Positions 1 through 57,127 of a stretch of DNA of 64,000 nucleotides are shown in pieces (the stretch's first letter is position 1; each line of letters starts with the position of its first letter). Made by a program: the position numbers and the translations under genes. This stretch comes from Iphione sp. A-MEVVRFRX5 (taxonomy: Eukaryota). Location: positions 20,026,001 through 20,090,000 of the forward strand of contig OZ320315.1 of NCBI GenBank assembly GCA_976226885.1, given 5' to 3'. The notes under the pieces are model-generated. The model had not been told where the DNA came from and searched no databases. It saw nothing but the letters and a program-made list of their open reading frames with translations.

Positions 1-67
1 TGATCACACTCAACAGTGATCGCCTCCCAACAACGGATTACCACATGGTCTGAAGCAGCCCAGATCG

Positions 68-652
68 ATGCATACCTCTGACATTGATTACATCTTAAGA
101 AACAACCCTTACACACAACATTATTACCTTGGTACATTTCCAAGTGATCTTATCCCCAAATCTCCAAAACCTAATAGCTGTTTCGTTAGTAATACAGATC
201 CACACACGAAACAAGGACAACATTGGGTAGCCTTCTACACTAACGCTCTCTTAGAAAGTTATTATTTCGACTCGTACGGTCTACCTCCATTTATCCCGAA
301 CTACATTCGTTTCCTTTGTAAAACCGAAAAGTGGGACTTCAATAAAAAACAACTACAACGACTTAATTCTACTAACTGTGGTGAACACTGCATACGCTTC
401 CTAATTGAAAGATGTCGTTCACGGAATCCGTATCACACACTGAAACAGCTGCAATATCTTCCTCTTCTCTACACGGATCGAGACGCGAGTCACTACTTAA
501 TAGTCTTCGGCGTAGACTCAACACCGGCGTACGTAAAAGAACAGAGAGCAACATCGTTTCAACCCCTTCAAACCCAACACCACCCCATGAATCCACAATT
601 GAACATGAAGACGAGAAAAAAGAAAAAGAAGAAGAAGAAGGATTCCTTATAA
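68..652 (+). CDS. Adenain-like (peptidase C5-type) cysteine protease typical of Polintons/Mavericks
   Basis: Motifs NTDPH..GQHWVAF (His52), YFDSYGLPP (Asp68), QLQ (Gln97) and STNCGEHC (Cys104) occur in adenovirus-protease order. Frame is open. Confidence 0.85.
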   Translation: MHTSDIDYILRNNPYTQHYYLGTFPSDLIPKSPKPNSCFVSNTDPHTKQGQHWVAFYTNALLESYYFDSYGLPPFIPNYIRFLCKTEKWDFNKKQLQRLNSTNCGEHCIRFLIERCRSRNPYHTLKQLQYLPLLYTDRDASHYLIVFGVDSTPAYVKEQRATSFQPLQTQHHPMNPQLNMKTRKKKKKKKKDSL

Positions 653-937: not shown

Positions 938-1140
938 ATGACGTCATCACGATAATTTGAGTCTATGATCACGTGATCATCAATAAGGACCTTGACCTTG
1001 GCCTAAATTTCTCAACCAATCAGCATTAATTAATATGACACCGCGACTTCCGGTTTGTACCGGAAGTCAAACACTAAATTTCGAAATCCCTCTTTATTTC
1101 ATAGTAATTCGGGGCGGTGTAGAATCAAAGTATATACTTT
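938..1140. promoter_or_regulatory. Cluster of palindromes and TF-like motifs (possible Polinton terminal/promoter region)
   Basis: ATGACGTCAT 938-947 (CRE); ATGATCACGTGATCAT 965-980 (E-box, perfect 16-bp palindrome); GACCTTGACCTTG 988-1000; CCAAT ~1016; GACTTCCGGT-ttgt-ACCGGAAGTC 1045-1068 (inverted ETS pair); ATTTCGAAAT 1078-1087; GC box 1111; AAAGTATATACTTT 1127-1140. Confidence 0.5.
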
Positions 1141-2476
1141 TCATATTGAAATGGACTTGTTGCCAGGCATTCGGTATAACGGACACAAAATATCGATGGC
1201 TTATGCATTTATTGATGCTGAGCGGATGATCGGAACTTTTGAGGAACAGTTATATGTAGGAGAAGAAGCTATCATTCCGTTAGAAATCAAAGTGGCGCAC
1301 CTAGTGGCTGGGAGGTTGACACCGGAAGTACTACCCATAGGTGAATTGAAGTTGGTGCTGGCACATATCCAGCACAACTTGCCAACACATATGTCATTAT
1401 CCTTTCCATTGGACAATATTTGGGAGTACTATGCCACTATCCATACGACTACTGTATTGCTGGGAGATTCACTGGTGATTACAATGAAAGTCCCACTGGT
1501 GGACCACTGGGCCAAGTTAACCTTGTATGAAGTCATTAACATTCTTGTGCCCACGCAAGATTTGTCCAATGTTGTTAAGTATTACTTAGAGTTCCCTTAT
1601 TTTGGTATCACTGCCGATGGTAGAAGGTCTGCTCAAGTGACAGGAGGAGATCTTGTCAGGTGTGAGGACATTTATGCCAAATACTGTGTCTTAACCTTGA
1701 CACTGTGTGAAATTAACAGACACCAGTATTGTGTCATGGCTTTGTTCCAAGTGGTGTCTGGAAAGGTTGACACTCTGTGTCGACGGGAAACTGTAGTAGA
1801 TGAACATCTCCCTATTACTCGATATGTGGAGCAAGGTAGATGGGTGGTGTCCACCCAAGAGGATGTTCGATTCCGCATTGATTGTCAGAATGGAACACAG
1901 CATACGGCACATGCACGTTTTCCTTTTTCTATGATTACATTAGGTAATGGGTGTAGGGCCAATAGTGATCGCCTATCCTTACCCACTTAATACTATAAAT
2001 GAACGGAATATGAGGTCCAAAAGGCACCTTTGGAGATGCCCCATGAGTTAGACATCCATGAATTAGAAATTTGACTGAGTTACCTGAACCTTTGACCACT
2101 ACCAACCATTCCGGATATTTAAGATCCCTTACGAAACCTGACCAACAATGATTTGGGACAGCTCGTTAGCAGACTGAAGTCATTAAAAGAACATATAGAT
2201 GACCATAATTGGGGTACGGGGCTTAGCTGGATGACCATTTTGGTTATTGCTATGGGAGTTCTGCTTATTGTGCTCGTGTACATGTGTTTTGCATGCAGAA
2301 AGGGGTGGTGTCATAAAACATTGATGCCTGAAACTACTGTAAATTTACCTATGACCTTAATGTGTATGTGGGAAGGGTCTGCGTCTGGCAATGCTAGGGC
2401 AGCAAGTGTTCCTTTGCCACTCCCCATACTTCCGAGAAGAACCTTGAGGGTTAGAACTGATAAGAAGGGAAGTTGA
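1141..2476 (+). pseudogene. env: Envelope (F-like class I fusion protein) C-terminal half, disrupted
   Basis: GRLTPEVLP..LKLVLAHIQHNLP, Cys-rich ectodomain, heptad DLGQLVSRLKSLKEHI, TM WMTILVIAMGVLLIVLVY, cytoplasmic CFACRKG. Stops and a frameshift between 1990 and ~2125. Confidence 0.75.
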
Positions 2477-3372
2477 ATTGATGTTATTAGCCTTGTTGAA
2501 ATCTTAGACCATTATGAAGTTAGTTCGACCTTGTTACAACCAAATCTCAATGCTTTACTGCCTAGGGCCTCTGGACGTGTGTATTAAGACTGGTGGCAGG
2601 AGAGTAAAGAATTCTTGCTCTAGTCTAAGAAAGCATACTTTGTTTGATATACCTGTTAATGTATTTCTCTGTACAGCAGGAACAGTAGAAAGTGTGGTAT
2701 GTTTCTATGATGACGTCAGTTGCAATTGCCGAGTTATTTTATCAAATTGCCGGCTAGAAATGTAATATACTTGCCATGTGGTGATGACCGATTTTTGAAG
2801 CTGTTCACGATGTACATATTGTTCATCACAGAAAAGACACAGGGCATCCCTATTTAACATTTTGTTGTTTGTCACGTATCATCCACTTTGTTGCTCCTTA
2901 AAATGGGGGGATGTGTCCTTAATCTATGTGGTGTGCTGAAAGTTTTAGGAACATCTTCCCGTCAAAGGGTTATGCCATTAGCGTAACTCCTTGGCACCAA
3001 TTGTGTAGCACAGATCAAACTCTCTTTCGCTTTCGAAAACAACATTCTAATCTGAAGATAGTTTGCTGTGAGGCCGTGGCGTGGTTCCACCAAAACAATT
3101 GGAGAGTGTAGTTACAAGTTTCAATCATTTGAGGCAGGTAGGTTCATGGTTGGGCCTGGCCTGAACATCGGAGTTTTGCTGATAATAAAACTATAATTTG
3201 ATATGCAATCAATTTTGCATACATAATGGACATAATTATGTGTATATGTAGAAAGCATATTCTACAGTCATTATGTCTTTTAATGTAATATTAAGTGGAA
3301 GAAAGAGAGTTTCCTTGTACAGTGTATAGATATAAGCTTATAACGTGGGTTTTCTTATCAAAACAAGAGGTG

Positions 3373-42354: not shown

Positions 42355-42760
42355 AATAGGATAAGTCGTGGTGCCAAGATCCGATGTAGTGTGCTCGGTA
42401 ACCCTTGTACTGGTAGTAAGTATACAAAGTCGTGGTGCCAAGGTTTGGTAAGATGTACTCAGTGACCTCAGTATTGCAGTTGAATAGGATAATGTAGAAT
42501 AGGATAAGTCGTGGTGCCAAGATCCGATGTAGTGTGCTCGGTAACCCTTGTACTGGTAGTAAGTATACAAAGTCGTGGTGCCAAGGTTTGGTAAGATGTA
42601 CTCAATGACCTCAGCATTGCAGTGGAATAGGATAAGTCGTGGTGCCATGGCCAGATGTAGTGTACTTGGTAACCCTGGTACTGGTAATAAGTATACAAAG
42701 TCTAGGTGCCACGGTTTGGTAAGATGTACTCAATGATCTCAGCATTGCAGTTGAATAGGC
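42355..42760. repeat. Tandem repeat, 3 units of 128-143 bp, each with two GTCGTGGTGCCAAG-like subrepeats
   Basis: Unit starts at 42365, 42508 and 42636. Confidence 0.85.
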
Positions 42761-42763
42761 TGT

Positions 42764-43620
42764 GTGTCATGTAACACACGGAAATTGAAGAGGCAATTGA
42801 GACCTCTTCAGGTGATGGAAAGCATTACATTTCCATTTCAAAAGTTGGCAGTTGATACGTGTGGACCGTACCAGCAATCCAAAGCCGGGTACGTGTATCT
42901 CCTGACCCTTATCAATGTCTATTCCGGGTGGCCTGAGATGTTCCCCATGAAAACCAAGCAGGCCCAGACATTCGTGACAATTTTCTTGAACGAGGTGATA
43001 CCTCATCATGGATGTCCCATAGTGCTGTTATCCGACAATCGGACCGAATTCGTGAATGAGGTAATGAAGGAAATTTGTCGAAAGTTCGTTGTTGCTCGCA
43101 TCACCACTAGCCCGTACCACCCAGCTTGGAACAGTAAGGTTGAGCGGATGCACCGGGTATGGAATGACATCATAGCGAAATTGACTGGAGGGGATATGGC
43201 ACATTCAGAAAGGGCTATACCATCTGCTTTGTTGGCTCTACGGATGAGCACTAATGAGTCAACTAAGCACACACCCTTTTACCTCCTTCATGCCAGGGAC
43301 CCTATATTGCCACTGGGCATGTTGCTTCAACCCCAAGTAAGATATTACAGGGAGTAGCATCATCAAATAGTCCTACAACGCCATCATCAGACTATGACTG
43401 TGGTCCGACGGAATGTCGCTGTGGGGCGACAGCGCATGAAAAAATATCATGACCAATGGGCCACAGATGTGTCCTTTGAAGTGGGAGACCCTGTGTATGT
43501 ACAGAACCCCATTCGGCGTCATAAGGCCGATATTAGGTGGCAACCTTAAGGATGCATAGTAGAAAAGATCCCCGTCAATTTCGTTGCGAAGGATCAGGTA
43601 ACGGGGAAATTGGCGAAGGT
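42764..43620 (+). pseudogene. pol: G3 integrase
   Basis: CxxC, KLAVDTCGP, LLSDNRTEF, TSPYHPAWNSKVERMHR, TKHTPFYLLHARDP; stops after 43357. Confidence 0.85.
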
Positions 43621-44474
43621 CCATAGTGATCGCTTGCAGATGGCAAACCTTGACTTGAGGGTGCCAAAGCAGGGCGAAGCAAGATTGCGCCGGTGTGTTG
43701 CTTTAGCCGGAGATGGGACGTCTTCCGATTCGGATGGAGGGCCGTCCTCATCATTGGATGATTCAGATGGGTTCTCTTCCGAGGACGAAATCCCTTTGGC
43801 CCAGTTGTATGGAAGAGAACGGAGGCAGGAAGTGCCTGACCTGCAGAATGACCCTGATCTTTGGAAGGAAGAGGGACGGGTTGGGGTGGAGGGCCCTGTT
43901 GCTGAAAACATTAATCCACTGGATCAGGTGCACCGACCCGGGTGAATGGAACCCGATCCAGCGGCTGAGGATTGTGGTGAGGGGTTAGGTGTGCTATGCA
44001 ACCTGCTGGTCGCCTGTGCAGAACGGCAGCACGTGGCTTGAAAGCAGGCCGTCACTCCAGGCAACCCACCGGAAGCCCCACCTATGGAGGCAGAAAATAG
44101 GGAGGAAGGTGCAATGGGAGGTAGGGATCCAACCCCGCCCCGGGCACCCGAGACCGATGGTCAACCAAATGTAGGGGAAAAAGACAAAGTGAGACCACAT
44201 AGATATCGTACCCGAGCAGTGGTCAAGCGAGAGCAGACCCTGCCTACAGAACTGCCACCTATGCAAAAGCGACTCCGTCAGTTTTGGACGCGAGGGCCTT
44301 GGTTTAAACAAGATCGAGGGGAAACTAGTGAGCAATGTGTTGAGCAATGAAAATTAAACAGATGGAGCTAATGACTCAAGAACCAGCTGAGCATTTAACA
44401 AAAGCCCTAACTACTTTGCATACTGTGACTACTATTTTGCGTGGCCTTGCAATGACGGAGAATAGTGTGCCTGA

Positions 44475-45350
44475 AAGCTAATCGATGCCCTTTTCTCTGT
44501 TGCATGCTGCCTATGGGTCCTTACGGGGCTAGTCCTCATGCATCTGGTTACCAGTGGAACCCTTGAAAACATTATCTTCAAGAGGCCACTGGATGTGAGG
44601 TCCATCATGTCGTCCTGTTGACTGGACCTGATTTCCGAATATGACCGTTATAAACACATGGGATATGAGCTGTCACAGGAGCTGAACCGTACACGGTACG
44701 GACTGCTAGGGACCACGTACAGTATCATACCCCCGTGGCAGATCTACAGCAATCGACCCCATGCAGAACCGGTGGCCCGCATAATTATGAGATCACAGTT
44801 GGACAGGGCAGAGATTTTGCAGGCACAAATCCAACAGGGAATTGCCGGATTGGACAACATCGCCAAGTTAGGGACTGAGGAACACGCGCATTGCTTCCAT
44901 GAGGAGCAAAACGATCGCATGAATATATTTGAGCATAACAATTGCACCCATTCCAAACGAAGCCCAGAGATATAATTAGCCCCTGTGGGAGGTGTGGTGC
45001 TAGTGGCAGGAATGGCAACAGGCTTTGGGATCATAGGTAATGAAATTCACGTGATCAAGCAGAGAGTGTATCAGCTAGAACGTCAGCAGCTGAAGACTCT
45101 CACTATCATGAAGGATATGATGACAGTGATAAATCAGGCGAGGGTTGATGCCAAAAGGAACCATTAGCACATTAATGATGTGCTGAAGATATTGAAGGTG
45201 GTTGATATTGATTTGTGGGAGGCTGTGCATGTTATGAGCAACCTCAACACTTGGGAAATCCAGCGAGGCGCTTGTTTCACACGCTGAAACTGCGCACCAA
45301 CAAGATTGAATTAATGCTCAAGCGTGATCCTGGACATGAGGCATTAGTGA
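44475..45350 (+). pseudogene. env: G3 env N-terminal half (signal peptide, cleavage site, fusion peptide, HR1)
   Basis: One frame reads VACCLWVLTGLVLMHLVTSG..ENIIFKR..HSKR|SPEI*LAPVGGVVLVAGMATGFGII..IKQRVYQLERQQL; in-frame stops. Confidence 0.7.
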
Positions 45351-46064: not shown

Positions 46065-46778
46065 TGTAAACTAATGTTTGTTGTATTTCCCACTTGGAAT
46101 AAAACCAGCTATGGTCTGCTTCAAAACTGTCTTAGTGTTGCTGCCTTTGTGTCACTAGCTGCTATAGATGCTCAACCCTTAAGGTAATCCAAGTGGGTTA
46201 GGTCCCTTGAGCTTCACAGAAGAATAAGATCCACAAGTGAGTCCAATTCCAAACTGATTTTATTGGCCACACAGGGCTCATATTTATACTCATACTCAGG
46301 GTCATGTGACTGGTTCAACAAGAAACATAATAACAATCCCTGGAAGGGAAATGCTACAGTGCTCCCTTAAGGCTTCTAAAAATAGCCCAGATCAGATACA
46401 TTATATCTACCATGTGCTAGCAGGCTAAAAATAGAATGCTCCTAGCCAATGAGATCCTAGAAATTTTTAACATCTGGGTTTGGGTAACCCCAAGCTAGTT
46501 TGGGTGTCCCCAAACGGCACAGCAGGACCCCAGTCCAGGGGCCAGAGAGTACAGCTAACTTTGTAAGACATTTGGGTATCCCCAAACGACACAGCAGGTC
46601 CCCAGTACAGGGGCCAGAGAGTACAGCTAACTTTACAAGACATTTGGGTATCCCCAAACGACACAGCAGGTCCCCAGTACAGGGGCCAGAGAGTACAGCT
46701 AACTTTACAAGACATTTGGGTGTCCCCAAACGGCGCAGTAGGTCCCCAGTACAGGGGCCAGAGAGTACACTAACCACA
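46065..46778 (-). repeat. G4 3' LTR
   Basis: TGTGGTTAG...GTTTACA on minus; CCAAT ~46446; TATAAA 46288-46283; AATAAA 46264-46259. Confidence 0.97.
46499..46769. repeat. 72-bp tandem repeat (~3.7 units) in G4 U3; same at 56848-57118
   Basis: Unit starts 46499, 46571, 46643, 46715; each begins TTTGGG-N4-CCCAAA. Confidence 0.95.
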
Positions 46779-46790
46779 CTCTCCCCACCT
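46779..46790 (-). promoter_or_regulatory. G4 polypurine tract
   Basis: AGGTGGGGAGAG immediately 5' of the 3' LTR. Confidence 0.85.
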
Positions 46791-47126
46791 TAATCCCCCC
46801 TACTGGGGGAGATACGAGCACAACGTCCATCCCAGGGGGGTAGGCGACACTACCACCCTGAGAGGTCCCTACTTGCAATATGCGACACCGGGTATTTCCA
46901 CTAGTCACCAAAACATCTTGAGTACACATTTCTAAGACTTATGCAGGTAATTCCCAAATAGCCGTCTCATCACAGTAACACAAGTACATCTGGTAATGTT
47001 TCTTTTTGTGGGATACAGTTCCCTTCACTTGTCTTGAGAACATCTTAAGTAACATCCTTAACACTTACTCAGTTAATTGCCGGGTACACATCTTTAACAC
47101 TCTTTTACAATATCAGAGAGGACACC

Positions 47127-47538
47127 TGTAACAGATCATTACTTGATTATGCGTGGAGCTTCATTAATGACAATAACAGTAAGTATCACAAGAGCAACAA
47201 TCTTTTTGGGGGAATACAGTTCCCTTCATCTTTTAACCATCAACAGCTGGAATACACGGATTGTCAACAATTCTCCTACTTATTCAGGGCAATTGATCAA
47301 AACACTTTATCATCTTACCATCGGAGATATTGTAACAGATCATTACTTGATTATGCGTGGAGCTTAATTAATGACAATAACAGTAAGTATCACAGGAGCA
47401 ACAATCTTTTTTGGGGGAATACAGTTCCCTTCATCTTTTAACCATTAACAGCTGGAATACACGGATTGTCAACAATTCTCCTACTTATTCAGGGCAATTG
47501 ATCAAAACACTCTATCATCTTACCATCGGGGATATTAT
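47127..47538. repeat. 204-bp tandem duplication in the G4 3' UTR, with partial flanking copies (~47000-47030, ~47570-47650)
   Basis: TGTAACAGATCATT starts at 47127 and 47331. Confidence 0.9.
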
Positions 47539-47658
47539 ATAACAAAGGTAAATACCACATTAGGCTCACATTTTTTTTCTGGGGATACAGTTCCCCTCAT
47601 CTTCTAACCATTAACAGCTGGGATATACAACAACCCTCTTAATTGATCAGATATGTCC

Positions 47659-49275
47659 CTAGATCACCATGGCTCGCGCCTTCTTTCCCTTTACCCCTAC
47701 CTTGCCCTTCGAACTCCTCTTTCCCGTCTGACTGGGAACCAGTTCTGCTCCGATGGTGGGTGTCCACACACTACTCGCCCCCAAACAAACTTGGCGGGGA
47801 GAAGTCCCTATGCAGATGTCATGGAGGGTGGGGGTATGCTGGTGTTGCCAGGCCCGGACCGCTTCCGCCTCCTTGGCCCAGGCTTCGGGGTTGAGGCGGG
47901 GCTGGTCCGAGTCCCATGCTGGGCCGGGCTGCAGGTCCTTTATCAGTTCCTCTGCCCCCTCCACGGCTCGGTTACTTTTTTCAGTGATTGTCTCCCGGTT
48001 TCCCCACTCCCCCTGCCGAGGGAGGGCGAGACCCGGCAGTAGGAGCGCGGGCCGCTGTCGTAGGGGCCCCAGGAGGTCTTCAGGTAGCTCCCCTTCATCC
48101 TCCACCATGTGGAGGACCCAGGCCAGGGAGGAACAAGCGATGAAACGTTGTTCGGGTCGCATCTGTTGCCACCGGGGGGGCGGCCAGGTAATCTTCTCGG
48201 GTAGGCGGACGGCGGCTGGCGCCGATGGATGTCGCATCGTGGCTTTAAGATGGGGCATCAGCCCATCCAAGTAGGCCCGTACCCGGTCGGCGGTGGGAGC
48301 CACTCGGTCCGGAGGGAGTAGGCGACACACCAACCGCGACAGTCGTCCTTCGGGAAGAGGCGGGGGGGGCACCGGGGTAGGCCCGGCTAGCAGTGGGTCT
48401 CCAGGCGCTCCCCCTCCAGCCGTGCTTCGCTCCTCGTCAGCCGCCATCTCCTCCGCGTCCTGAAGCATTCGAGCGGCCACAGAGGCAGCCTCTGAGGTGT
48501 CCCAGGATACGGTGTCTAGGTAGGGTGTGAGGGGCGGGTTCCCCCAGGAGACAGCCCCACTGTCATCGTCGCTGTCGTCGTCCGGCGCCGTGGTCATCAC
48601 CGGCTCCAGTGCCGGCGTTTGGGATGGTCCGGGGCCCCCCTCACTTGCCCAAGAGGGACCAGGCGTGGGGTCATGTGGGACCTGTTCGCCCTCTATCCCC
48701 TGTGCAGCGATCCCCTCCCGTGGAGTTGCCTCGGGCACCTCGGCCCCCGTGTGAGGGGCTGTGGGTCCCCCCAGTGAGGTCGGGAGGTTCTCCAGGCTGG
48801 TGATGTGACACATTGGAATGGCTGCCCGAGGGTGTGTGGCCAGCATACTCTCAACCTGCCCGCGGTCTAGTATACGTCCCTGTAGGCGGGCAGCCCGAGC
48901 CCGGACAATCGTTTGGGACACCCCATCCCTGGGTACCTCGATGTCTCCGTCAGGGGTCTCCTTGTACAACAGTCTGTAGGGTCGGTCTAAGAGCCCTAGT
49001 CCCTCCACCCAGGGATGGTGTTTGCGGACGTGTGCCAGCCAGGCATACATATCTTTGATTCGGCTAGGGCAATAAACACAGAGCCACCTGTGTTGACGTT
49101 TGCCCTGATGGTAATCCCTCAGGTGCCTCTCTAGGGACTCCCCCCCGCAGAAAAAACGTTTTTTAGGTGTGCATAATTCACAAAGGATAGCCCCCTCCGG
49201 GAGACACATGCCCTTCTTCAGGATGCGGGGCCGCTTAGGGGGGGAAGGGTTTACACCTGTCCCGTCTTGGGCCAT
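47659..49275 (-). CDS. G4 accessory ORF: 538-aa protein with two C2H2 zinc fingers, NLS and acidic/Pro-rich region
   Basis: C32-x2-C35..F42-x5-L48-x2-H51-x4-H56 and canonical C66-x2-C69-x12-H82-x3-H86; PPKRPRILKK; DDDSDDDS; gacATGG context; uninterrupted frame. Confidence 0.8.
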   Translation of the reverse strand: MAQDGTGVNPSPPKRPRILKKGMCLPEGAILCELCTPKKRFFCGGESLERHLRDYHQGKRQHRWLCVYCPSRIKDMYAWLAHVRKHHPWVEGLGLLDRPYRLLYKETPDGDIEVPRDGVSQTIVRARAARLQGRILDRGQVESMLATHPRAAIPMCHITSLENLPTSLGGPTAPHTGAEVPEATPREGIAAQGIEGEQVPHDPTPGPSWASEGGPGPSQTPALEPVMTTAPDDDSDDDSGAVSWGNPPLTPYLDTVSWDTSEAASVAARMLQDAEEMAADEERSTAGGGAPGDPLLAGPTPVPPPPLPEGRLSRLVCRLLPPDRVAPTADRVRAYLDGLMPHLKATMRHPSAPAAVRLPEKITWPPPRWQQMRPEQRFIACSSLAWVLHMVEDEGELPEDLLGPLRQRPALLLPGLALPRQGEWGNRETITEKSNRAVEGAEELIKDLQPGPAWDSDQPRLNPEAWAKEAEAVRAWQHQHTPTLHDICIGTSPRQVCLGASSVWTPTIGAELVPSQTGKRSSKGKVGVKGKKARAMVI

Positions 49276-49322
49276 GTCGGGCCGTCTCTGTCACACTCAC
49301 CTAAATCCAGGTCTTCCCTGGC

Positions 49323-50156
49323 GTTGGGTTCACCCAAACTGGGGCTAACCTCGTCCGCTTCGTAGCCCGTTCCTGCGTCTTCTACAAGGAGCGTTTTCGT
49401 TCTCCTCCTCCTTTTTGCGTTCACCCAAACTGGGGCTAACCTTGTCTGCTTCGTAGCCCGTTCCTGCGTCTTCTACAAGGGGTGTTTTCGTTCTCCTCTT
49501 CCTTTTTGCGTACACCCAAACGTCTCAAATGCGTACTAGCCCCGTTCTTATTTTGGGCATCCCCAAACTGTAGCGATCTTTCGCATCCCGTCGGTACTCT
49601 CTTCGTGTCGACGCTGTGATAGTCTCGAACCGGATGTTTTGGTTGGCGACTTCCGGTTGCTGGAATACTCTCGAACCCAATTTTCCTTTTGCGTCTCCCC
49701 AAACGGGGGGTCGGCCGGTAGGATTTTCCGTGCTAGTTTCCACTGTTTCTTGCCGTTTTCGTCACCCTTCGTAATAATCCAGAGCTTGGGTACACACAAA
49801 CCAACGTCAACATCCCATCCAGTAAAGTCTTCGTAAACTTTTGGGTGTACGCAGACCAACAACATCGTCTTCTCGTTTGGGTGTTCGCAAAACGATCTTT
49901 TGTCCGTCATCCACAAGTTTTCGTACTTATTCCCCGGTTTATTATCATATTTATCACCCTAGTGCTGGGGTACACGCGAACCAACGTCGTCTTCCCATCT
50001 CGTCAGGTTTTCGGGCTCATTTGGGTATACGCAGACCCGCGACCTCGTCTTCTCGTTTGGGTGTTCGCAAGACGATCATCCTCGTTTGGGTGTTCGCAAA
50101 ACGACCATTCGCTCGTCGTCTATAAATTTGGCGTTGCGCGTAGCCCGCCGTCAGTC
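49323..50156. promoter_or_regulatory. Putative bidirectional internal promoter: 12 copies of TTTG[GC]G-N4-C[GC]CAAA, inverted ETS-like pair, TATA and Inr on +
   Basis: Sites at 49323, 49414, 49505, 49552, 49688, 49785, 49840, 49876, 49965, 50020, 50056, 50085. 91-bp tandem repeat at 49323-49521. CCGGATGT 49630 and ACTTCCGG 49649. TATAAA 50121, TCAGTC 50151. Confidence 0.7.
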
Positions 50157-50203
50157 GTTGCCTGGCTCTCCTGGTATACACACTGTGGGTTGTTCATCCT
50201 GAC

Positions 50204-50396
50204 ATGGAGTTCATAAGCTACCCTCCACCAGACCTGCCTGTGGGATACCCGCCCATGGAGGATAGGTAGGCTTCTTACTGAGGAGGTTGTTTGACAGTTG
50301 CTCCAGGTGTTGTGATCCTTGACAGTTCTAGCTTCATCCTGGTCTTCTGGAAAAGGTGAGTATCCATTCAGGTTACCTTGTTTGCATTCTGGCTGG

Positions 50397-50442
<46 letters not shown>

Positions 50443-51052
50443 TGTTGTAACCTGTTCCTCTTCCTCCTCTTCCAGGACTGCCACCCCAGATGCCTACTTC
50501 CGGTATGTGGACGTGGGTACTCCGGGACCCACAGTCCGCATATACGGAACGTTTCAACTCCTCTCTACAGAGCTGTTCGTTCCATCCCCGGGCCACGTGA
50601 GGATCCACTGCCCGGATCACATCCTTGATTTGAGCGTACACCCAAGCGGGTCACCTTCACCTCCGCCGCCGCCGGTTCACGACCCTGAGTGGCAGGACCC
50701 GCGCTGGGAGACGGTCTCACCTGACCTTGGTGAACGGGAGGTGGCCGAGACGCTGTTGAGTCTCTCCGATGATTATGCTGGTGATTCTTCATCCCCTTCG
50801 CTCACCTCCAGCCGGTTGGACCCATGGGACTCCGATCAGTTGTCGGCCCTACTCGGTCCCTCCCCGTCACCTCCGCAGTCACCATCCTCGTCTAGCGAAG
50901 AGTCCCGGCGCGACTCGCCCGGCCGCTGGACCCCCCTCCTGGGGCGTTCCTACCTCGATGACCTGCCCCCGCAGGTGTTGGAGTCTGCCTATCCCGGCTT
51001 GGAGCGAGGGGATTGCCCCTTCTTCCCGATCATGATCTCCGATGAAGAGTGA
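50204..51052 (+). CDS. G4 antisense spliced ORF (exons 50204-50265 and 50476-51052; 212 aa), mostly disordered Ser/Pro/acidic
   Basis: gacATGG start; donor AG|GTAGGC at 50266; branch-like GTAAC 50447; pyrimidine tract; CAG|G at 50475. The phase-2 join is in frame. AATAAA at 51153. Splicing is predicted, not observed. Confidence 0.65.
50398..50441. repeat. T44 homopolymer (A44 on the element sense strand)
   Basis: Directly visible; lies inside the predicted intron. Confidence 0.9.
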
Positions 51053-51152
51053 ACATTGACATTTCTGGAGTTGGACAGTTATAGTAATTTTCCTGATGCC
51101 GGAACTGTTTATCGTTAATGATGTTCACTGCCAGTCTTGCCATGTTTTTAGC

Positions 51153-51158
51153 AATAAA
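51153..51158 (+). terminator. Polyadenylation signal for the antisense gene
   Basis: AATAAA 100 nt after the stop, followed by GT/T-rich sequence. Confidence 0.6.
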
Positions 51159-51943
51159 ATGTCTCCTGTTTCAGCCTTAATTCCGGCCTTTTCATTTCGT
51201 TCAGTCCTAATTATCTTCATAATCATTTTCATAATTATCTTCATAATTATCTTCGATTCTGTCATGGCTAATCCGTAATTCGCTGGCTTTGTCATAACTG
51301 TTAACACTAAAGTTACATGCATCCGAGTAATGTTCTGCTGAGTGAGAGGTAATGACTCCTACCCTACTGCAGGCTGCTGTAGACGTCGAGAGGACAAGAG
51401 TCCATCCCAGTCTACCCACTTCTCCAAGAGGACATGGACCGCAGCTCGGTATCTTCCCTCTTCCGCCTGTGGACATTTCGAGCTCCGCTGGCTCCAGGGT
51501 GTCCACTCTCCCTTGCTTTCGCGCGTCTCCAGGATGCTCATCCTCCTTCCCGTAGGCTTTCGAAGCGTCTCCAGGATGTCCGTCCTCCCCAGGAACTTTT
51601 CGGACACTGTGGTCCCCGGATGTCCTTCCTCCTGCTGAGGTCCTTTTGGCGATTCCTCACCCAGGTGTACCTCGCTCACCTCCCGGACTTTTCGAGACCT
51701 TCCAGGTTGCCTACCCCTCAGGGACTTTTTGGGCATTACTGCCCCAGGATGTCCCCCCCTCCTCTGGGAGCTTTGTGGGCGGTTTCCCGCCCCAGGCGAT
51801 CTCCCCTCTTCCTCATGAGACTTTTCGAGCGCGCCAGGAGGTCCAACCCCCTTCTTCAGGGCCCTGCCCTCGGGTCCACCTTGGACCTTGCTGCCAAGAG
51901 GCTACCTCCGCCTCTCCTTTTCCTTTCTCCTCCAGTCTACTCC

Positions 51944-54900
51944 CTACGACCTCTCCGGGTCGGGTACGTTGACTTCACTCCCCCTGTCTGGTGGAGATTT
52001 CGCGTTTTTCTTCTTCCAGGTCATGATCCACCGGGGAACCTCCTTCTTGAGGAAAGGCCGCAACCGGTTCCGGTGGACCACCTTCGCCCTAGCTTGACGG
52101 GATCGCTTGATCACCGCCCTCGCATCGTCCAGCTTCTCAGTCACCAACCAGGGGCCTGTCCACGGGAAATGGGTTTTAGGGCTGTGGCCTCGTGGCGGTT
52201 GAGCTTCATGCAGCCAGACCACATCTCCGGCTTCCAGCGGGCTCCCCTTCATCCTGCGGTCGTATGCCCTTGCCTGGACCCGAGCCGCCCGCCCGAGCCT
52301 GGTCCGCACTATCCGGTACGCATGGCGCAAGCGTCTTCTCGTATGCTCCACCCATTCTGGGAGGGGCATCTCACTCGGGTCACCCATGGGCAGACCATCC
52401 AGTGCGTGAACGGGTAGTAATACCTCACGCCCGAACATCAAAAAGTTTGGTGTAAATCCGGTGCTAGCCTGTGGCGAAGCCCTATAAGCCATCATCAGGT
52501 AAGGTAGGGCTTGATCCCATTCGTCGGACGCCTCATAGCAGTGGGCTTTCACCATCCTTCCCAAAGTGCGGAAACTCCTCTCGATATACCCGTCACTTTG
52601 AGGGTGGCGTGGTGTGGTCCGGGTCTTCTTGATGTCTAAGAAGTTACAGAGTGCCAGGATGATCTCGCTGCAAAAATTCGTCCCCTGGTCACTATGAAGC
52701 TCTTGGAAACATCCATACCTGGTGATCACTTCTTCCATCAACACCTCCGCTACTCTGGTTGCTTTCTGATCGGGCAGGGGAAAGGCCTCTAGCCACTTGG
52801 TGAAGTGATCCCCCACCATAAGGACATATCGGTTTCCCCGCCGGGTCTCTGGCAGTGGGCCGGCTACGTCGATAGACCATCTCTCCATGGGTTCGCCCGA
52901 GATGTATGTCCGGAGTGCGGTCTGCGGCCTCCGCGGATTCTGGTTGAGCAGAGCGCAGTGGCAGCTTGTACACCACCCCTCTATGTCGTCTCGCATCCTC
53001 GGCCAGTAATACGCGAGTCCCACCAGATGAGTTGTCCTGTCGGCTGCCAGGTGTGCCCCTGCCTGACCGCTGTGAACTTCCTGGAAAGCTCGTTGCCGGA
53101 ACTCTGTGGGAAGCACCACTTGTAGCCGAGAGGGGTCACCCTCGAAACCCACCCATTTCCGGTGCAAGAGGCCCCCTTGGGCCGTCAGGCGGCCCCATTG
53201 TCGCCAGAGGCTCTTACAGGCGGCTGACAGGGGTGCCACCTGTTCCCAGGCTGGCTGAGTAGGGTCAGCTTCTAGCAGCCGTAGGATGGGGCCAATGTCA
53301 TCATCGCGGAGCTGGGCTTGTCGAAGCTCCGGGTGTGATGAGACCTGTGCTTGGGCTCTGGTCACGGCGGCAACCTTGGCTGGTACTTCTTCATCCTCCT
53401 GATGGGTCTGCTTGCATTGGCGACATGGCTTGCGGGAAAGAGCATCCGCGTTAGCGTTGTTTTTCCCCGCCCTATGTTCTAACCGGAGGTTGTACTGACC
53501 CACTCGTTCTATCCACCTGGCGAGCTGCCCCTCCGGGTCCTTGATTCGACTCAGCCAACTAACGGCTCCATTATCTGTCCGTACCGTCACCTGTTGCCCG
53601 TAGATGTAAAAGTGAAAGTGCTTCAGGGCAGCAACCACGGCTAACAGCTCCCGTCGCATGACACAGTACCTTCTTTCTGAGGCACTCAAGCTCCGACTGA
53701 AGTAGGCGAGCACCACCTCACGGTTGTCTTGCTGTTGTGCTAGCACCGCCCCCAGGCCTACGTTACTGGCGTCCGTGTCGAGCAGGTAGCGCCCCTCCAT
53801 TCGTGGATATCCCAACACCGGACTGGACGTCAGGGCCTCTTTCAGCTGGCGGAAGGCTTCTTCTTGAGGTGCGCCCCAAGCAAACTCGGCCTTCGAGCTA
53901 GTTAATGGGTTCAGCGGGGCAGCCAGATTTGCGAAGTGAGGCACATACCTGCGGTAGTAGGAGCATATCCCAAGGAAGGCCCTCACCCCCGTTGGGCAGG
54001 TGGGCACAGGCCACTCCCGGATAGCCCGGGTCTTAGCTGGGTCAGTGGCCACTCCCTCCTTCGAAACTATATGTCCTAGGAAGCCTATCTCCTGTAGGAA
54101 CAGCTGACATTTCGTCGGTTTCAGTTTCAATCCGGCTGTTTCTAGACGGGACAACACTCGTTCCAGCCGGTCCAAGGTCTCGTCGAACTCCCGTCCGAAA
54201 ACCAAGATGTCGTCGAGGTAGACGAGACATTGTTCCCAAGTCAGCCCCCTCAGCACGGTGTCCATTAAGCGTTCGAAGGTAGCTGGTGCGTTTATCAAGC
54301 CGAAAGGCATTACTGTGAATTCGTATAATCCGACAGAAGTAGAGAAAGCTGTCTTCTCCTGGTCTTCTGGGTGCATCTTGACCTGCCAATACCCCGACGC
54401 CAGGTCAAGAGAACAGAAGTACCGAGCCCCAGCGAGGGTACTTAGAGAGTCATCGATCCTAGGGAGAGGATAGGCGTCAACTTTGGTCTTCTGGTTTAGC
54501 TTGCGGTAGTCGACGCAAAACCGGGTGGTTCCATCTTTCTTCCTCACCATCACAACCGGGCTAGACCAGGGACTCCTACTTTCGACGATCACCCCCGCTG
54601 TCTTCATTTCTTCTACTAAGCGACGCTCCTCCTGACGCTTAGCCAGCGGGAGACGCCGCGGAGGTTGTTTGATGGGATGGGGATCGTCAGTGAAGATGCG
54701 ATGTTGAGTCCAGTCAGTATGCCCCAGGTCATGCCGGCCCTTGGAGAAAACCTGACCATGCCTCTCCAGCACTATACCCAGGCGTTCTTGTTGTTCTGAT
54801 GTCAGAGTGTGCCGGGTGGCTTCTACCAAGTTTTTCACATTAGCTGGCTGTTCCTCCCGTATCAGACAAACCCTCCCGGTGGGGGCCACTGACTCACTCT

Positions 54901-55627
54901 TACAGGGCCGGGCGGGCACTCCCAGGGCTACCTTGGTGCCTTGGCTTATAAAAACCTCCACTTCTCCTACATTCCACACAGGGAGTACATCTTGCACGAC
55001 ACACCGGATGCTAATCAATCCCTTCTCGATCTGAGCTTCTACCAGGCCCTCCACCATCACAGGATGGTGTTCTGATAGGCAAAGGGGCACCAGGGTCCCT
55101 TCTCCGGGTGGGACAGTGATGTCACAGGCAGTGCATACCTCTCCCTTGAGGGTAGTGATACCCCTGCACCTGGATATTCCTGGTTTGAACACAACCTCCT
55201 GTTTAGCCAGATTGATAACCGCCTGGTGTTGGCATAGAAAGTCACTCCCCAATATGCCATCCTCCTCTATTTCAGCTATGATGAAAGGGTGCTGGAATTG
55301 CCTCCCTGCTATGCTGATCTCACAAACTTGTTGCCCCTGAGTGGGAATGATGTGGCCCCCCGCTCCTGCAATACGAGTCAGTGGTTCTTCACCCCCCAGG
55401 CCAGGGACCACACGGGGATTCACAATGGATACTTCAGCTCCCGTATCAATCAATAGCAACAGTTCAGTTCCATTCAGGCTTACCTTTAGCCGTGGTCCCT
55501 GACCTGGTTCCATTGTGGTCTCCGTATGCGTAATCCCAGTCGAACCCTCCTGGCCTATTGGGTTGACTGCGTCCCGTTTCCCTGTAGTGTGGGGCAATCC
55601 CGCTTGAAGTGGCCTGGTTGACCGCAC
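51944..55627 (-). CDS. pol: G4 Pol polyprotein (PR-RT-RNase H-INT), intact
   Basis: LIDTGAEVS; SPWSSPVVMV..YLDDILV; LDTDASNVGLG..ELLAVV..RTDN; H..H..C..C, DVAGP, SDQG, PQSDGYIERSFRT, PWTGPW; 1227 codons open. Confidence 0.97.
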   Translation of the reverse strand: MRSTRPLQAGLPHTTGKRDAVNPIGQEGSTGITHTETTMEPGQGPRLKVSLNGTELLLLIDTGAEVSIVNPRVVPGLGGEEPLTRIAGAGGHIIPTQGQQVCEISIAGRQFQHPFIIAEIEEDGILGSDFLCQHQAVINLAKQEVVFKPGISRCRGITTLKGEVCTACDITVPPGEGTLVPLCLSEHHPVMVEGLVEAQIEKGLISIRCVVQDVLPVWNVGEVEVFISQGTKVALGVPARPCKSESVAPTGRVCLIREEQPANVKNLVEATRHTLTSEQQERLGIVLERHGQVFSKGRHDLGHTDWTQHRIFTDDPHPIKQPPRRLPLAKRQEERRLVEEMKTAGVIVESRSPWSSPVVMVRKKDGTTRFCVDYRKLNQKTKVDAYPLPRIDDSLSTLAGARYFCSLDLASGYWQVKMHPEDQEKTAFSTSVGLYEFTVMPFGLINAPATFERLMDTVLRGLTWEQCLVYLDDILVFGREFDETLDRLERVLSRLETAGLKLKPTKCQLFLQEIGFLGHIVSKEGVATDPAKTRAIREWPVPTCPTGVRAFLGICSYYRRYVPHFANLAAPLNPLTSSKAEFAWGAPQEEAFRQLKEALTSSPVLGYPRMEGRYLLDTDASNVGLGAVLAQQQDNREVVLAYFSRSLSASERRYCVMRRELLAVVAALKHFHFYIYGQQVTVRTDNGAVSWLSRIKDPEGQLARWIERVGQYNLRLEHRAGKNNANADALSRKPCRQCKQTHQEDEEVPAKVAAVTRAQAQVSSHPELRQAQLRDDDIGPILRLLEADPTQPAWEQVAPLSAACKSLWRQWGRLTAQGGLLHRKWVGFEGDPSRLQVVLPTEFRQRAFQEVHSGQAGAHLAADRTTHLVGLAYYWPRMRDDIEGWCTSCHCALLNQNPRRPQTALRTYISGEPMERWSIDVAGPLPETRRGNRYVLMVGDHFTKWLEAFPLPDQKATRVAEVLMEEVITRYGCFQELHSDQGTNFCSEIILALCNFLDIKKTRTTPRHPQSDGYIERSFRTLGRMVKAHCYEASDEWDQALPYLMMAYRASPQASTGFTPNFLMFGREVLLPVHALDGLPMGDPSEMPLPEWVEHTRRRLRHAYRIVRTRLGRAARVQARAYDRRMKGSPLEAGDVVWLHEAQPPRGHSPKTHFPWTGPWLVTEKLDDARAVIKRSRQARAKVVHRNRLRPFLKKEVPRWIMTWKKKNAKSPPDRGSEVNVPDPERS

Positions 55628-56385
55628 TGGAAGCAGTTGTTATGCCTGGGCTTCCTGTTTCTTGCCTCTTCCTTACTCCGAAGATCTTCCCGGATCTTGG
55701 CCAGCTCTTGCGTCAGTTCTTCCAAGGGCTTCCTCCACTCTGGCGTTGCTGAGGGCTGTACCACTTGAATCTTCCTGGCCGCGAAGCGCTCTTGCGTCTC
55801 CACCACCTGGATTGCCGTGTCCAAAGTGGTGCACTTGGCCTCCAAGCACTTAAGGTGTAGGGTGTCCGATAGGGCTCGTTGGAAAGCAGCCACAGCAGCC
55901 AGCTCGCGCGTCTCCCCACTAACATCCGGGTATGCGCTCCGGACCAGTCGGCGGACTCTGTCTGCTAGATCCCTGGTATCCTCATCCCGTTGCCGCTTGA
56001 TACTGGACAGCTTTTGCATAGCCACCACACGATCACGACGGCGGCCGAACCTCCTCTCCAAAGCTGCCACTCGGGAGTTGAAATCCCTCTTGTCCTCCGT
56101 CGGTAAATCTCCATAGTACATCCTGGCCGGGCCCGTCAGAGACAGCGTGAGGGCCGAACACTTAGTGCCCTCGTTCCAATGACATGCATCGGCCCACTCG
56201 GTGAACTGATTTATCCAGCTGTCCCAGTCGACAACTTTTCCGTCGAAGCGTTCTGGCTTCATGGTGTTCATCTTGAGTGGTTCCTCCGGTGCAATCTCAA
56301 AGTGCTCAACTTCTTCCTCTTCCGGAGTAGGACTAGGAATCCGGAGTGAGACTTCCTCATCCACTGTCAAGTAGTTGGTTGCCAT
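55555..56385 (-). CDS. gag: G4 Gag (276 aa from MATNYL) with a C-terminal CCHC knuckle
   Basis: KPERFDG..WDSWINQF, L..LTGPA, QRDEDTRDLADRVRRL, CFQCGQPGHFKRDC. Confidence 0.95.
   Translation of the reverse strand: MATNYLTVDEEVSLRIPSPTPEEEEVEHFEIAPEEPLKMNTMKPERFDGKVVDWDSWINQFTEWADACHWNEGTKCSALTLSLTGPARMYYGDLPTEDKRDFNSRVAALERRFGRRRDRVVAMQKLSSIKRQRDEDTRDLADRVRRLVRSAYPDVSGETRELAAVAAFQRALSDTLHLKCLEAKCTTLDTAIQVVETQERFAARKIQVVQPSATPEWRKPLEELTQELAKIREDLRSKEEARNRKPRHNNCFQCGQPGHFKRDCPTLQGNGTQSTQ
55576..55582 (-). promoter_or_regulatory. -1 ribosomal frameshift slippery site G GGA AAC
   Basis: In the gag frame caG GGA AAC (Q-G-N); a -1 shift enters the pol frame (GGG AAA CGG), five codons before the gag stop. 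Confidence 0.8.
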
Positions 56386-56394
56386 TCTTCTGTG

Positions 56395-56412
56395 ATCCCA
56401 CCGCTGCCACCA
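56395..56412 (-). promoter_or_regulatory. G4 primer binding site, tRNA-Leu
   Basis: TGGTGGCAGCGGTGGGAT, complement of the eukaryotic tRNA-Leu 3' end ATCCCACCGCTGCCACCA, one base after the LTR. Confidence 0.9.
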
Positions 56413-56413
56413 G

Positions 56414-57127
56414 TGTAAACTAATGTTTGTTGTATTTCCCACTTGGAATAAAACCAGCTATGGTCTGCTTCAAAACTGTCTTAGTGTTGCTGCCTTTGTG
56501 TCACTAGCTGCTATAGATGCTCAACCCTTAAGGTAATCCAAGTGGGTTAGGTCCCTTGAGCTTCACAGAAGAATAAGATCCACAAGTGAGTCCAATTCCA
56601 AACTGATTTTATTGGCCACACAGGGCTCATATTTATACTCATACTCAGGGTCATGTGACTGGTTCAACAAGAAACATAATAACAATCCCTGGAAGGGAAA
56701 TGCTACAGTGCTCCCTTAAGGCTTCTAAAAATAGCCCAGATCAGATACATTATATCTACCATGTGCTAGCAGGCTAAAAATAGAATGCTCCTAGCCAATG
56801 AGATCCTAGAAATTTTTAACATCTGGGTTTGGGTAACCCCAAGCTAGTTTGGGTGTCCCCAAACGGCACAGCAGGACCCCAGTCCAGGGGCCAGAGAGTA
56901 CAGCTAACTTTGTAAGACATTTGGGTATCCCCAAACGACACAGCAGGTCCCCAGTACAGGGGCCAGAGAGTACAGCTAACTTTACAAGACATTTGGGTAT
57001 CCCCAAACGACACAGCAGGTCCCCAGTACAGGGGCCAGAGAGTACAGCTAACTTTACAAGACATTTGGGTGTCCCCAAACGGCGCAGTAGGTCCCCAGTA
57101 CAGGGGCCAGAGAGTACACTAACCACA
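56414..57127 (-). repeat. G4 5' LTR
   Basis: Same sequence as 46065-46778. Confidence 0.97.

Follow-up and report, generated by a model that had tools for sequence, protein, structure and literature searches.

The G4 element and its third open reading frame

The 64-kb window analysed here (the whole stretch of 64,000 nucleotides, positions 20,026,001 to 20,090,000 of contig OZ320315.1 from Iphione sp. A-MEVVRFRX5) contains a Ty3/Gypsy retrotransposon, designated G4, which carries past gag and pol a third open reading frame (ORF3) for a 538-aa protein with two tandem C2H2 zinc fingers. A 16-bp palindrome, TTTG(G/C)G-N4-C(C/G)CAAA, is repeated in the same element. We propose, with a probability of about 0.55, that ORF3 encodes a sequence-specific regulator that would act on the long terminal repeat (LTR) and on an internal promoter of G4, probably as an activator.

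ORF3 is an intact gene, and the two-finger protein described in the sequence-only reading of this DNA is confirmed. The tandem finger pattern appeared in none of 100,000 shuffled versions of the protein, and none of 500 simulations of a 5.2-kb region with matching composition produced an ORF of at least 538 codons. A 3-periodic coding model trained on gag-pol gives the ORF3 frame +25.3 and none of the five alternatives more than −52.7, and the ORF3 frame ranks first in 6/6 segments. Descent by decay from a long interspersed element is not supported. ORF3, which had been assigned to the env position, begins 2.7 kb past the pol stop and does not directly adjoin it. The protein itself is not an Env, as already suspected, because it has neither a hydrophobic segment (Kyte–Doolittle hydropathy in a 19-residue window peaks at 1.02) nor a site for N-glycosylation (0 sequons). 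The motifs quoted earlier are all in place (SPPKRPR at residue 11, DDDSDDDS at 232, VSWGNPP at 242, YLDTVSWD at 252 and WQQMRPEQ at 369); the nuclear localisation signal (NLS) and the cyclin-dependent kinase (CDK) site (SPPK, KRPR) are motif matches.

Finger 1 (C32-x2-C35-x15-H51-x4-H56) is elongated by 3 residues relative to the canonical form and retains the F-x5-L-x2-H core; finger 2 (C66-x2-C69-x12-H82-x3/4-H86/87) is canonical. ORF3 has the classical C2H2 pattern (C-x2-4-C-x12-H-x3-5-H with hydrophobic core residues), although finger 1 has x15. The elongation presumably recalls BED spacing; zf-BED was not among the Pfam matches for ORF3 at E up to 1. Pfam recognised finger 2 alone, weakly (zf-C2H2_4, E 0.018, under the cut-off), and in a sequence search of the PDB both fingers aligned with the finger pairs of ZBTB17 (E 0.0075) and INSM1 (E 0.013). 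AlphaFold, run without an alignment (mean predicted local distance difference test score, pLDDT, 38.1 and 49.8), gave strand-strand-helix twice in the finger region, at low confidence (mean pLDDT 49.8), and pLDDT below 50 in the C-terminal part, for which a possible helical domain had been suggested. Three fold searches were uninformative (best E 0.21, Z 3.0 and E 0.39). An Atlas search with ORF3 gave generic small finger clusters only, and one with residues 305–490 gave no match. The best PDB match of the C-terminal part, to an L protein that we take to be of the Bornavirus-type family, had an E of 0.82 and was judged to be chance.

The element around ORF3 has the pol domain order of Ty3/Gypsy, a TG...CA LTR pair, a primer-binding site (PBS), a polypurine tract and a target-site duplication (TTAC at both flanks; Table 1). 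Its LTRs are 100% identical, which indicates a very young insertion. Pol and the end of gag have 85 nt in common in differing frames, the PBS is presumably tRNA-Leu-like, and the closest pol relatives, P0025 and P0026, show ~62% identity. The flanks are AT-rich and depleted of CpG (observed/expected ratio, o/e, 0.21–0.31), which suggests a methylated, vertebrate-like host genome. Right after pol, open frames at 51359–51901 (−, 180 aa) and 51383–52417 (+, 344 aa) overlie a degenerate GGACATCCTGG repeat; their coding signal is weak.

Table 1. Features of G4, with positions in the window (UTR, untranslated region)
Feature	Position	Strand	Remarks
5′ LTR	56414..57127	−	714 bp, TG...CA ends
Five palindromes of 5′ LTR U3	56828..57079	.	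four within 72-bp tandem repeat
TATA box in 5′ LTR	56637	−	
AATAAA in 5′ LTR	56613	−	
PBS, presumably tRNA-Leu-like	56396..56413	−	
gag	55555..56385	−	intact, CCHC knuckle present
pol	51944..55639	−	intact, protease-RT-RNaseH-integrase, Gypsy order
Candidate antisense accessory gene	50121..51158	+	spliced-looking; TATA 50121, ATG 50204, stop 51052, AATAAA 51153
Spacer, candidate divergent internal promoter	49276..50120	.	CpG o/e 1.29
ORF3, two-finger C2H2 protein	47659..49275	−	538 aa; ATG at 49275, stop ends 47659, no internal stop
Finger 1 (C32, C35, H51, H56)	49108..49182	−	helix −1..+6 GGESLER
Finger 2 (C66, C69, H82, H86/87)	49015..49080	−	helix −1..+6 DMYAWLA
3′ UTR	46790..47658	−	contains 205-bp duplication
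Polypurine tract	46779..46789	−	
3′ LTR	46065..46778	−	
Five palindromes of 3′ LTR	46479–46730		

A palindrome repeated within G4

The core of the palindrome, TTG(G/C)G-N4-C(C/G)CAA, has 18 exact matches in the window against 0.22 expected, and all 18 lie inside G4: five in the U3 region of each LTR and eight in the spacer between ORF3 and the candidate antisense gene. The ~53 kb of the window outside the element, other LTR elements included, contain no exact core site. The LTR copies precede the TATA box by 191–427 bp. Twelve copies were examined in the spacer (~875 bp when measured from 49276 to 50150), 8 of them being the exact core matches; the copy nearest ORF3 begins 48 bp away from the ATG, and the one at the opposite end stops 21 bp short of the TATA box of the antisense gene. 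Only the 4-nt gap between half-sites is enriched; other gaps from 0 to 10 give one site inside and three outside. Many copies arose by tandem duplication; the 17 examined sites nevertheless form seven groups with unrelated flanks, so the palindromes do not stem from one tandem duplication. As far as sequence can tell, such a pattern fits the DNA site of a dimeric protein. Two fingers cover a half-site of 6–7 bp.

The same repeats have been weighed under another explanation, in which ORF3 is an RNA regulator like Rev, Rex or the CERV protein of Cer1 and the palindromes, or repeats in the 3′ UTR, work as RNA hairpins. In Cer1, a Gypsy element, CERV takes the env position and is required for the export of genomic RNA (accessible text of PMC10309623), one LTR palindrome copy folds as a hairpin better than 200/200 shuffles (z −3.59), the related finger proteins described below have Arg/Ser-rich tails, and the 3′ UTR has four mini-hairpins. 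In the spacer, however, positions 5 and 12 are unpairable in 10/12 copies with no compensatory change, and the two palindromes that were folded did not exceed shuffles, so the palindrome fits a double-stranded DNA site better than a stem. The spacer copies also occur in both orientations, the three 3′ UTR motifs that were folded form small hairpins not above shuffles (z −0.18, 0.01 and −1.17), an Rfam search of the element gave no match, and finger 2 of the relatives has a textbook helix for double-stranded DNA. We consider the RNA explanation unlikely.

The 3′ UTR motif, GGGAACTGTA-T(T)CCC, occurs four times at 47010–47600 (−) with an A-run after each copy. A further observation concerns the half-sites themselves: U3 (56640–57127) is nearly CpG-free (o/e 0.18) and has the GGG half-site only, and the spacer often has the CpG-bearing GCG half-site. 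A methylation switch between the two sets of sites is possible.

A candidate internal promoter and a candidate antisense gene

ORF3 and the antisense gene diverge across the CpG-rich spacer. The 330 nt before the ORF3 ATG contain no acceptor with at least 9 pyrimidines in 16, and the next upstream ATG is at 49560; we therefore infer that ORF3 is more probably transcribed from an internal promoter in the spacer than produced by splicing of an LTR transcript. A splice donor matching the consensus at 8/9 positions is present at 49300 (−), 25 nt 5′ of the ORF3 ATG, and its use would bypass the start codon and perhaps the fingers as well.

In the candidate antisense gene, donor sites lie at 50266 and 50356, of which the latter agrees with the consensus at 9/9 positions. 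An exon of 30 nt (50326–50355) is optional, and a poly(T) tract is followed by an acceptor at 50476 that scores 16/16. The frame stays open in both splice forms, which would give acidic, Pro/Ser-rich proteins of 212 and 222 aa. The coding signal is weak, with the gene's own frame the best of six (−10.6 vs −16.0), and the protein has no match in Pfam, PDB, NCBIfam or the 77 Gypsy loci analysed below. It contains a segment, EVAETLLSLS, which in our assumption recalls co-repressor-binding helices.

Finger genes in related Gypsy elements

A search with a pol alignment retrieved at least 79 loci with eukaryotic Gypsy pol from GTDB representative genomes, presumably host DNA binned in bacterial assemblies. 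L001 and L019 were left out at the outset and 77 loci analysed; 54 contain the integrase end, and 48 have at least 350 nt past integrase. A finger ORF follows pol in 11 of the 48, in about four lineages (L002/3/4/13, L011/20/22/36/37, L025 and L047), a count for which the profile was built from 8 of those ORFs, in which 5/11 are near-copies of one lineage, and which includes the doubtful L047, where the ORF is antisense and maybe outside the element. Because it recurs in several lineages, the finger gene is not a one-off. The sequence-only reading had asked for homologues inside Gypsy elements: finger ORFs after pol do recur, and yet tblastn of ORF3 against the 77 loci gave nothing at E under 0.5.

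A finger pair is present in each of the four top scorers against G4 in reverse transcriptase–RNaseH (L002, L003, L004 and L013; 55% identity), and an acceptor lies 0–3 nt before the Met of the finger ORF in each. The pair is N-terminal, with an elongated finger 1 in L002–L004 (x14 vs x15 in ORF3), and the PBS of L002 and L003 is the same as that of G4. All four share the helix R-x-D-N-x-x-R in finger 2 and an Arg at +6 in finger 1. The ORFs at L002:3–713 and L003:6198–7511 have an Arg/Ser-rich middle and share a C-terminal domain of ~100 aa that has no Pfam match and no match to ORF3.

In the second lineage, L011 carries two fingers and L020, L022, L036 and L037 carry one; Pfam found nothing beyond fingers in the L011 and L020 ORFs. 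A domain of ~95 aa is conserved after pol at L027:9091–9651, L011:6746–7435 and L020:6527–7090, accompanied by two fingers in L011, one in the L020 group and none recognisable in L027. Long ORFs without fingers follow pol in L064, L071, L072, L016, L033 and L053 (antisense frames of 1007, 853, 475 and 565 aa, sense frames of 961 and 714 aa), and it is possible that they are further accessory genes or adjacent elements. A two-finger ORF of L017 (2648–3436), ~7 kb upstream of pol, probably belongs to another element and was not counted.

For the helices of the closest relatives a DNA target can be predicted: GAG is bound by RSDNLTR and RSANLVR, and Arg at +6 specifies G (accessible parts of PMC1920264 and PMC3919609). 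In L002, L003 and L013 a tandem array is located ~750–1270 nt upstream of the PBS, in L002 inside its LTR, and CCTCA/TGAGG is the only 5-mer present at least three times in all three arrays; the LTRs of L003 and L013 are unalignable by blastn. A GCTCG dyad in L002 was dropped, since it stems from repeats in the coding sequence of the finger gene.

LTR enhancers often bear tandem sites for host factors. The G4 palindrome could likewise be a host-factor site, with ORF3 doing some other job such as anti-silencing, modulation of host genes or the tethering of integration complexes to chromatin. The poor fit of the ORF3 helices to the half-site would agree with this, as would the finger ORFs of L011, L020 and L025, which come without a conspicuous LTR array. 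The NF-kB consensus GGGRNWYYCC, on the other hand, matches 0/17 palindrome sites, the exact core is absent from the 53 kb outside the element, and in L002, L003 and L013 the LTR array matches the helices of the element's own protein. A host-factor site, with another job for ORF3, seems to us unlikely.

Origin of ORF3

No close homologue of ORF3 was found. The full-length protein gave no homologue at E up to 0.01 among 8000 candidates and residues 25–165 gave none at E up to 10 among 865, both sets having lengths of 295–942 only. Proteins outside these lengths were covered solely by a search of 1.84 billion representatives, in which the sole match was a weak one (E 4e-4) to an unnamed multi-finger protein, P0004. 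No match was found in GTDB genomes, phages or NCBIfam.

In its composition ORF3 resembles its element. The G+C content at third codon positions (GC3) is 0.65 in ORF3 and 0.60–0.63 in gag-pol, CpG o/e is 0.64 and 0.67–0.73, respectively, and synonymous codon use is like that of gag-pol and unlike that of eight other transposon ORFs in the window. Because GC3, CpG and codon use match gag-pol, ORF3 has probably been resident in G4 for a long time. Capture from a host gene for a transcription factor was one of two origins offered by the sequence-only reading; if recent, it is unlikely, as codon use and CpG match gag-pol and not the flanks; an ancient host ancestry of the fingers may be possible. 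The other origin, from the N-terminal fingers of an R2-like element, found no backing: R2 chains were absent from the 14 PDB matches of ORF3 at E up to 10, with R2 proteins in the library, although short divergent R2 fingers could escape detection, and Pfam showed no Myb or reverse transcriptase remnant after the fingers.

Both origins return in the idea that ORF3 is a mere passenger, a recent piece of a host gene or an R2-like N-terminus that is still open as the insertion is young. With identical LTRs the copy is indeed too young for decay, it is the one copy in the window, and the P0004 match runs ~15 residues past finger 2. This idea is nevertheless very improbable in view of the codon use and CpG shared with the element and not with flanks or other transposons, the coding signal along the full frame, the missing R2 match, the recurrence of the layout in about four Gypsy lineages and the lack of a close relative among the 1.84 billion representatives.

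Proposed role of ORF3

The proposal that ORF3 regulates its own element is supported by the intact ORF, by the confinement of the palindrome to G4 and by the recurrence of finger ORFs after pol. The same palindrome and finger ORFs strengthen the transcription-factor layout ascribed to ORF3 earlier, whose NLS, CDK site, activation domain and C-terminal fold are motif-level guesses. An activator is quite possible, although at less than even odds, and an auto-repressor decidedly unlikely. We suppose that the ORF3 transcript would start in the CpG-rich internal spacer and that the protein would enter the nucleus by means of its SPPK and KRPR motifs. Each two-finger unit would read a half-site of 6–7 bp, so that two molecules would occupy one palindrome, and the acidic/aromatic Pro-rich middle may recruit host co-activators. 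The internal promoter would be boosted first, in a feed-forward manner, and the LTR, which makes the genomic RNA, second.

A number of observations weigh against this proposal. The helices of ORF3, GGESLER and DMYAWLA, are non-canonical and agree only partly with TTT-G(G/C)G; beyond Arg at +6 the fit relies on a recognition code that we assume, and Asp at −1 would presumably predict C where T is observed. For the relatives, GAG was expected before the LTRs were read, while the G that follows it was read after the arrays. The windows for the arrays had been selected visually, and TRF did not call that of L013; TGAGG has a chance probability of 0.09–0.17 per array in three elements that are related, and over whole LTRs GAGG is not strongly enriched (ranks 46, 7 and 17). 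No comparable array stood out in the LTRs of L011, L020, L022, L036 and L025. The profile of the relatives' fingers scores ORF3 at 18.4 bits (E 5e-4) and generic pairs in P0004 at up to 28.5, so common descent of the fingers is unproven. The first pol tree (87 rows) was a quick one; in a careful tree of 30 chosen rows the grouping of G4 with the L002 set is supported at no more than 84/73, and 6 changes are required for the finger label, which makes the trait patchy. Finally, the Arg/Ser-rich tails of L002, L003 and L004 are more typical of RNA-binding proteins.

A broader generalisation would be a widespread and so far undescribed animal class of "complex" Gypsy elements, each with its own two-finger C2H2 factor, whose recognition helices would co-evolve with tandem LTR sites, to which G4 would add a circuit of the foamy-virus type, with a divergent internal promoter for an activator, ORF3, and for an antisense counter-regulator, as is reportedly the case for Tax and HBZ. 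We put this forward as doubtful.

The common view is that LTR retrotransposons depend on transcription factors of the host, and C2H2 fingers are known above all as a means by which hosts fight these elements. If the proposed role is correct, this picture is reversed in an element that encodes a finger protein and carries the sites to go with it, and Gypsy elements gain a regulatory layer hitherto tied to complex retroviruses. Such an element would be partly independent of host factors, and its insertions would spread sites for a mobile transcription factor. Natural pairs of fingers and sites would then be at hand, with retrotransposons as a source of new ones.

Other features of the window

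An ORF at 20–652 (+) has a weak match to adenovirus protease (Peptidase_C5, E 0.0059) and is probably a Polinton/Maverick fragment. Cys-rich ORF pieces with a hydrophobic end, env-like by eye, occur at 1034–2476 (+), with no Pfam match for 1034–1987. At 3211–28389 a decayed Gypsy element is surrounded by an inverted duplication of 9 kb (98.7%) and a direct one of 3.6 kb (98.6%), and another Gypsy integrase, followed by several short ORFs, is located at 42755–44975 (+).

Comparison with known systems

In the open-licence literature searched, no Gypsy element was found to be described with an accessory ORF of the C2H2 type, although annotations in Repbase and GyDB could already note such ORFs. 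The accessible parts of PMC2774666, PMC8672886 and PMC8220671 mention no such gene, and in PMC8672886 fingers are described only in gag.

Several accessory genes nevertheless resemble ORF3 in one respect or another. In bdelloid ORF3s and in the short ORFs of the Drosophila MDG1 group, non-env cargo occupies or adjoins the env position (accessible texts of PMC5408684 and 10.1101/2025.03.14.642691), but this cargo consists of esterases, exonucleases or small membrane fusogens, and the main texts have no mention of zinc fingers. Oikopleura Tor3b/4b likewise express a third ORF after pol from an internal promoter, yet it encodes a membrane Env glycoprotein (PMC4402516, accessible part). CERV differs from ORF3 in its spliced mRNA and its export of RNA; no similarity between the two was detected, and C2H2 fingers are not mentioned in the accessible text of PMC10309623. 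The plant elements Retand and Grande, the latter with a nuclear accessory protein, share with G4 a long region separating pol from the 3′ LTR, tandem arrays, accessory ORFs for which DNA binding has been proposed and, in Grande, an own promoter; these ORFs are antisense, however, and have a TRP28 domain and no fingers, and no cognate site is reported in the accessible part of PMC11963269. Closest to hand are L002, L003, L004 and L013, whose ORFs stand in sense after pol and begin with a finger pair as in ORF3, but which differ in the acceptor before the Met, the Arg/Ser-rich middle, direct instead of palindromic sites and the lack of an antisense gene.

Tas (Bel1) of foamy viruses activates both an internal promoter and the LTR, with response elements at each (PMC12789967, accessible part), and like the G4 model it combines a DNA-binding regulator near the 3′ end with an internal promoter. 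G4 is by contrast a Gypsy element without env and not a spumaretrovirus, ORF3 is a C2H2 protein with no Tas match in Pfam, and both G4 promoters share one palindrome, so that ORF3 does not belong to the Tas family, although the functional analogy is not lessened by this; the function of Tas is established, that of ORF3 predicted. The Tax/HBZ pair of human T-lymphotropic virus (HTLV) offers an analogue for the proposed activator and antisense counter-regulator of G4 (accessible parts of PMC12789967 and PMC11963269). Accessory genes of LTR elements are thus already known, and what is new in G4 is a two-finger C2H2 accessory gene with candidate cognate sites in the promoters of its own element.

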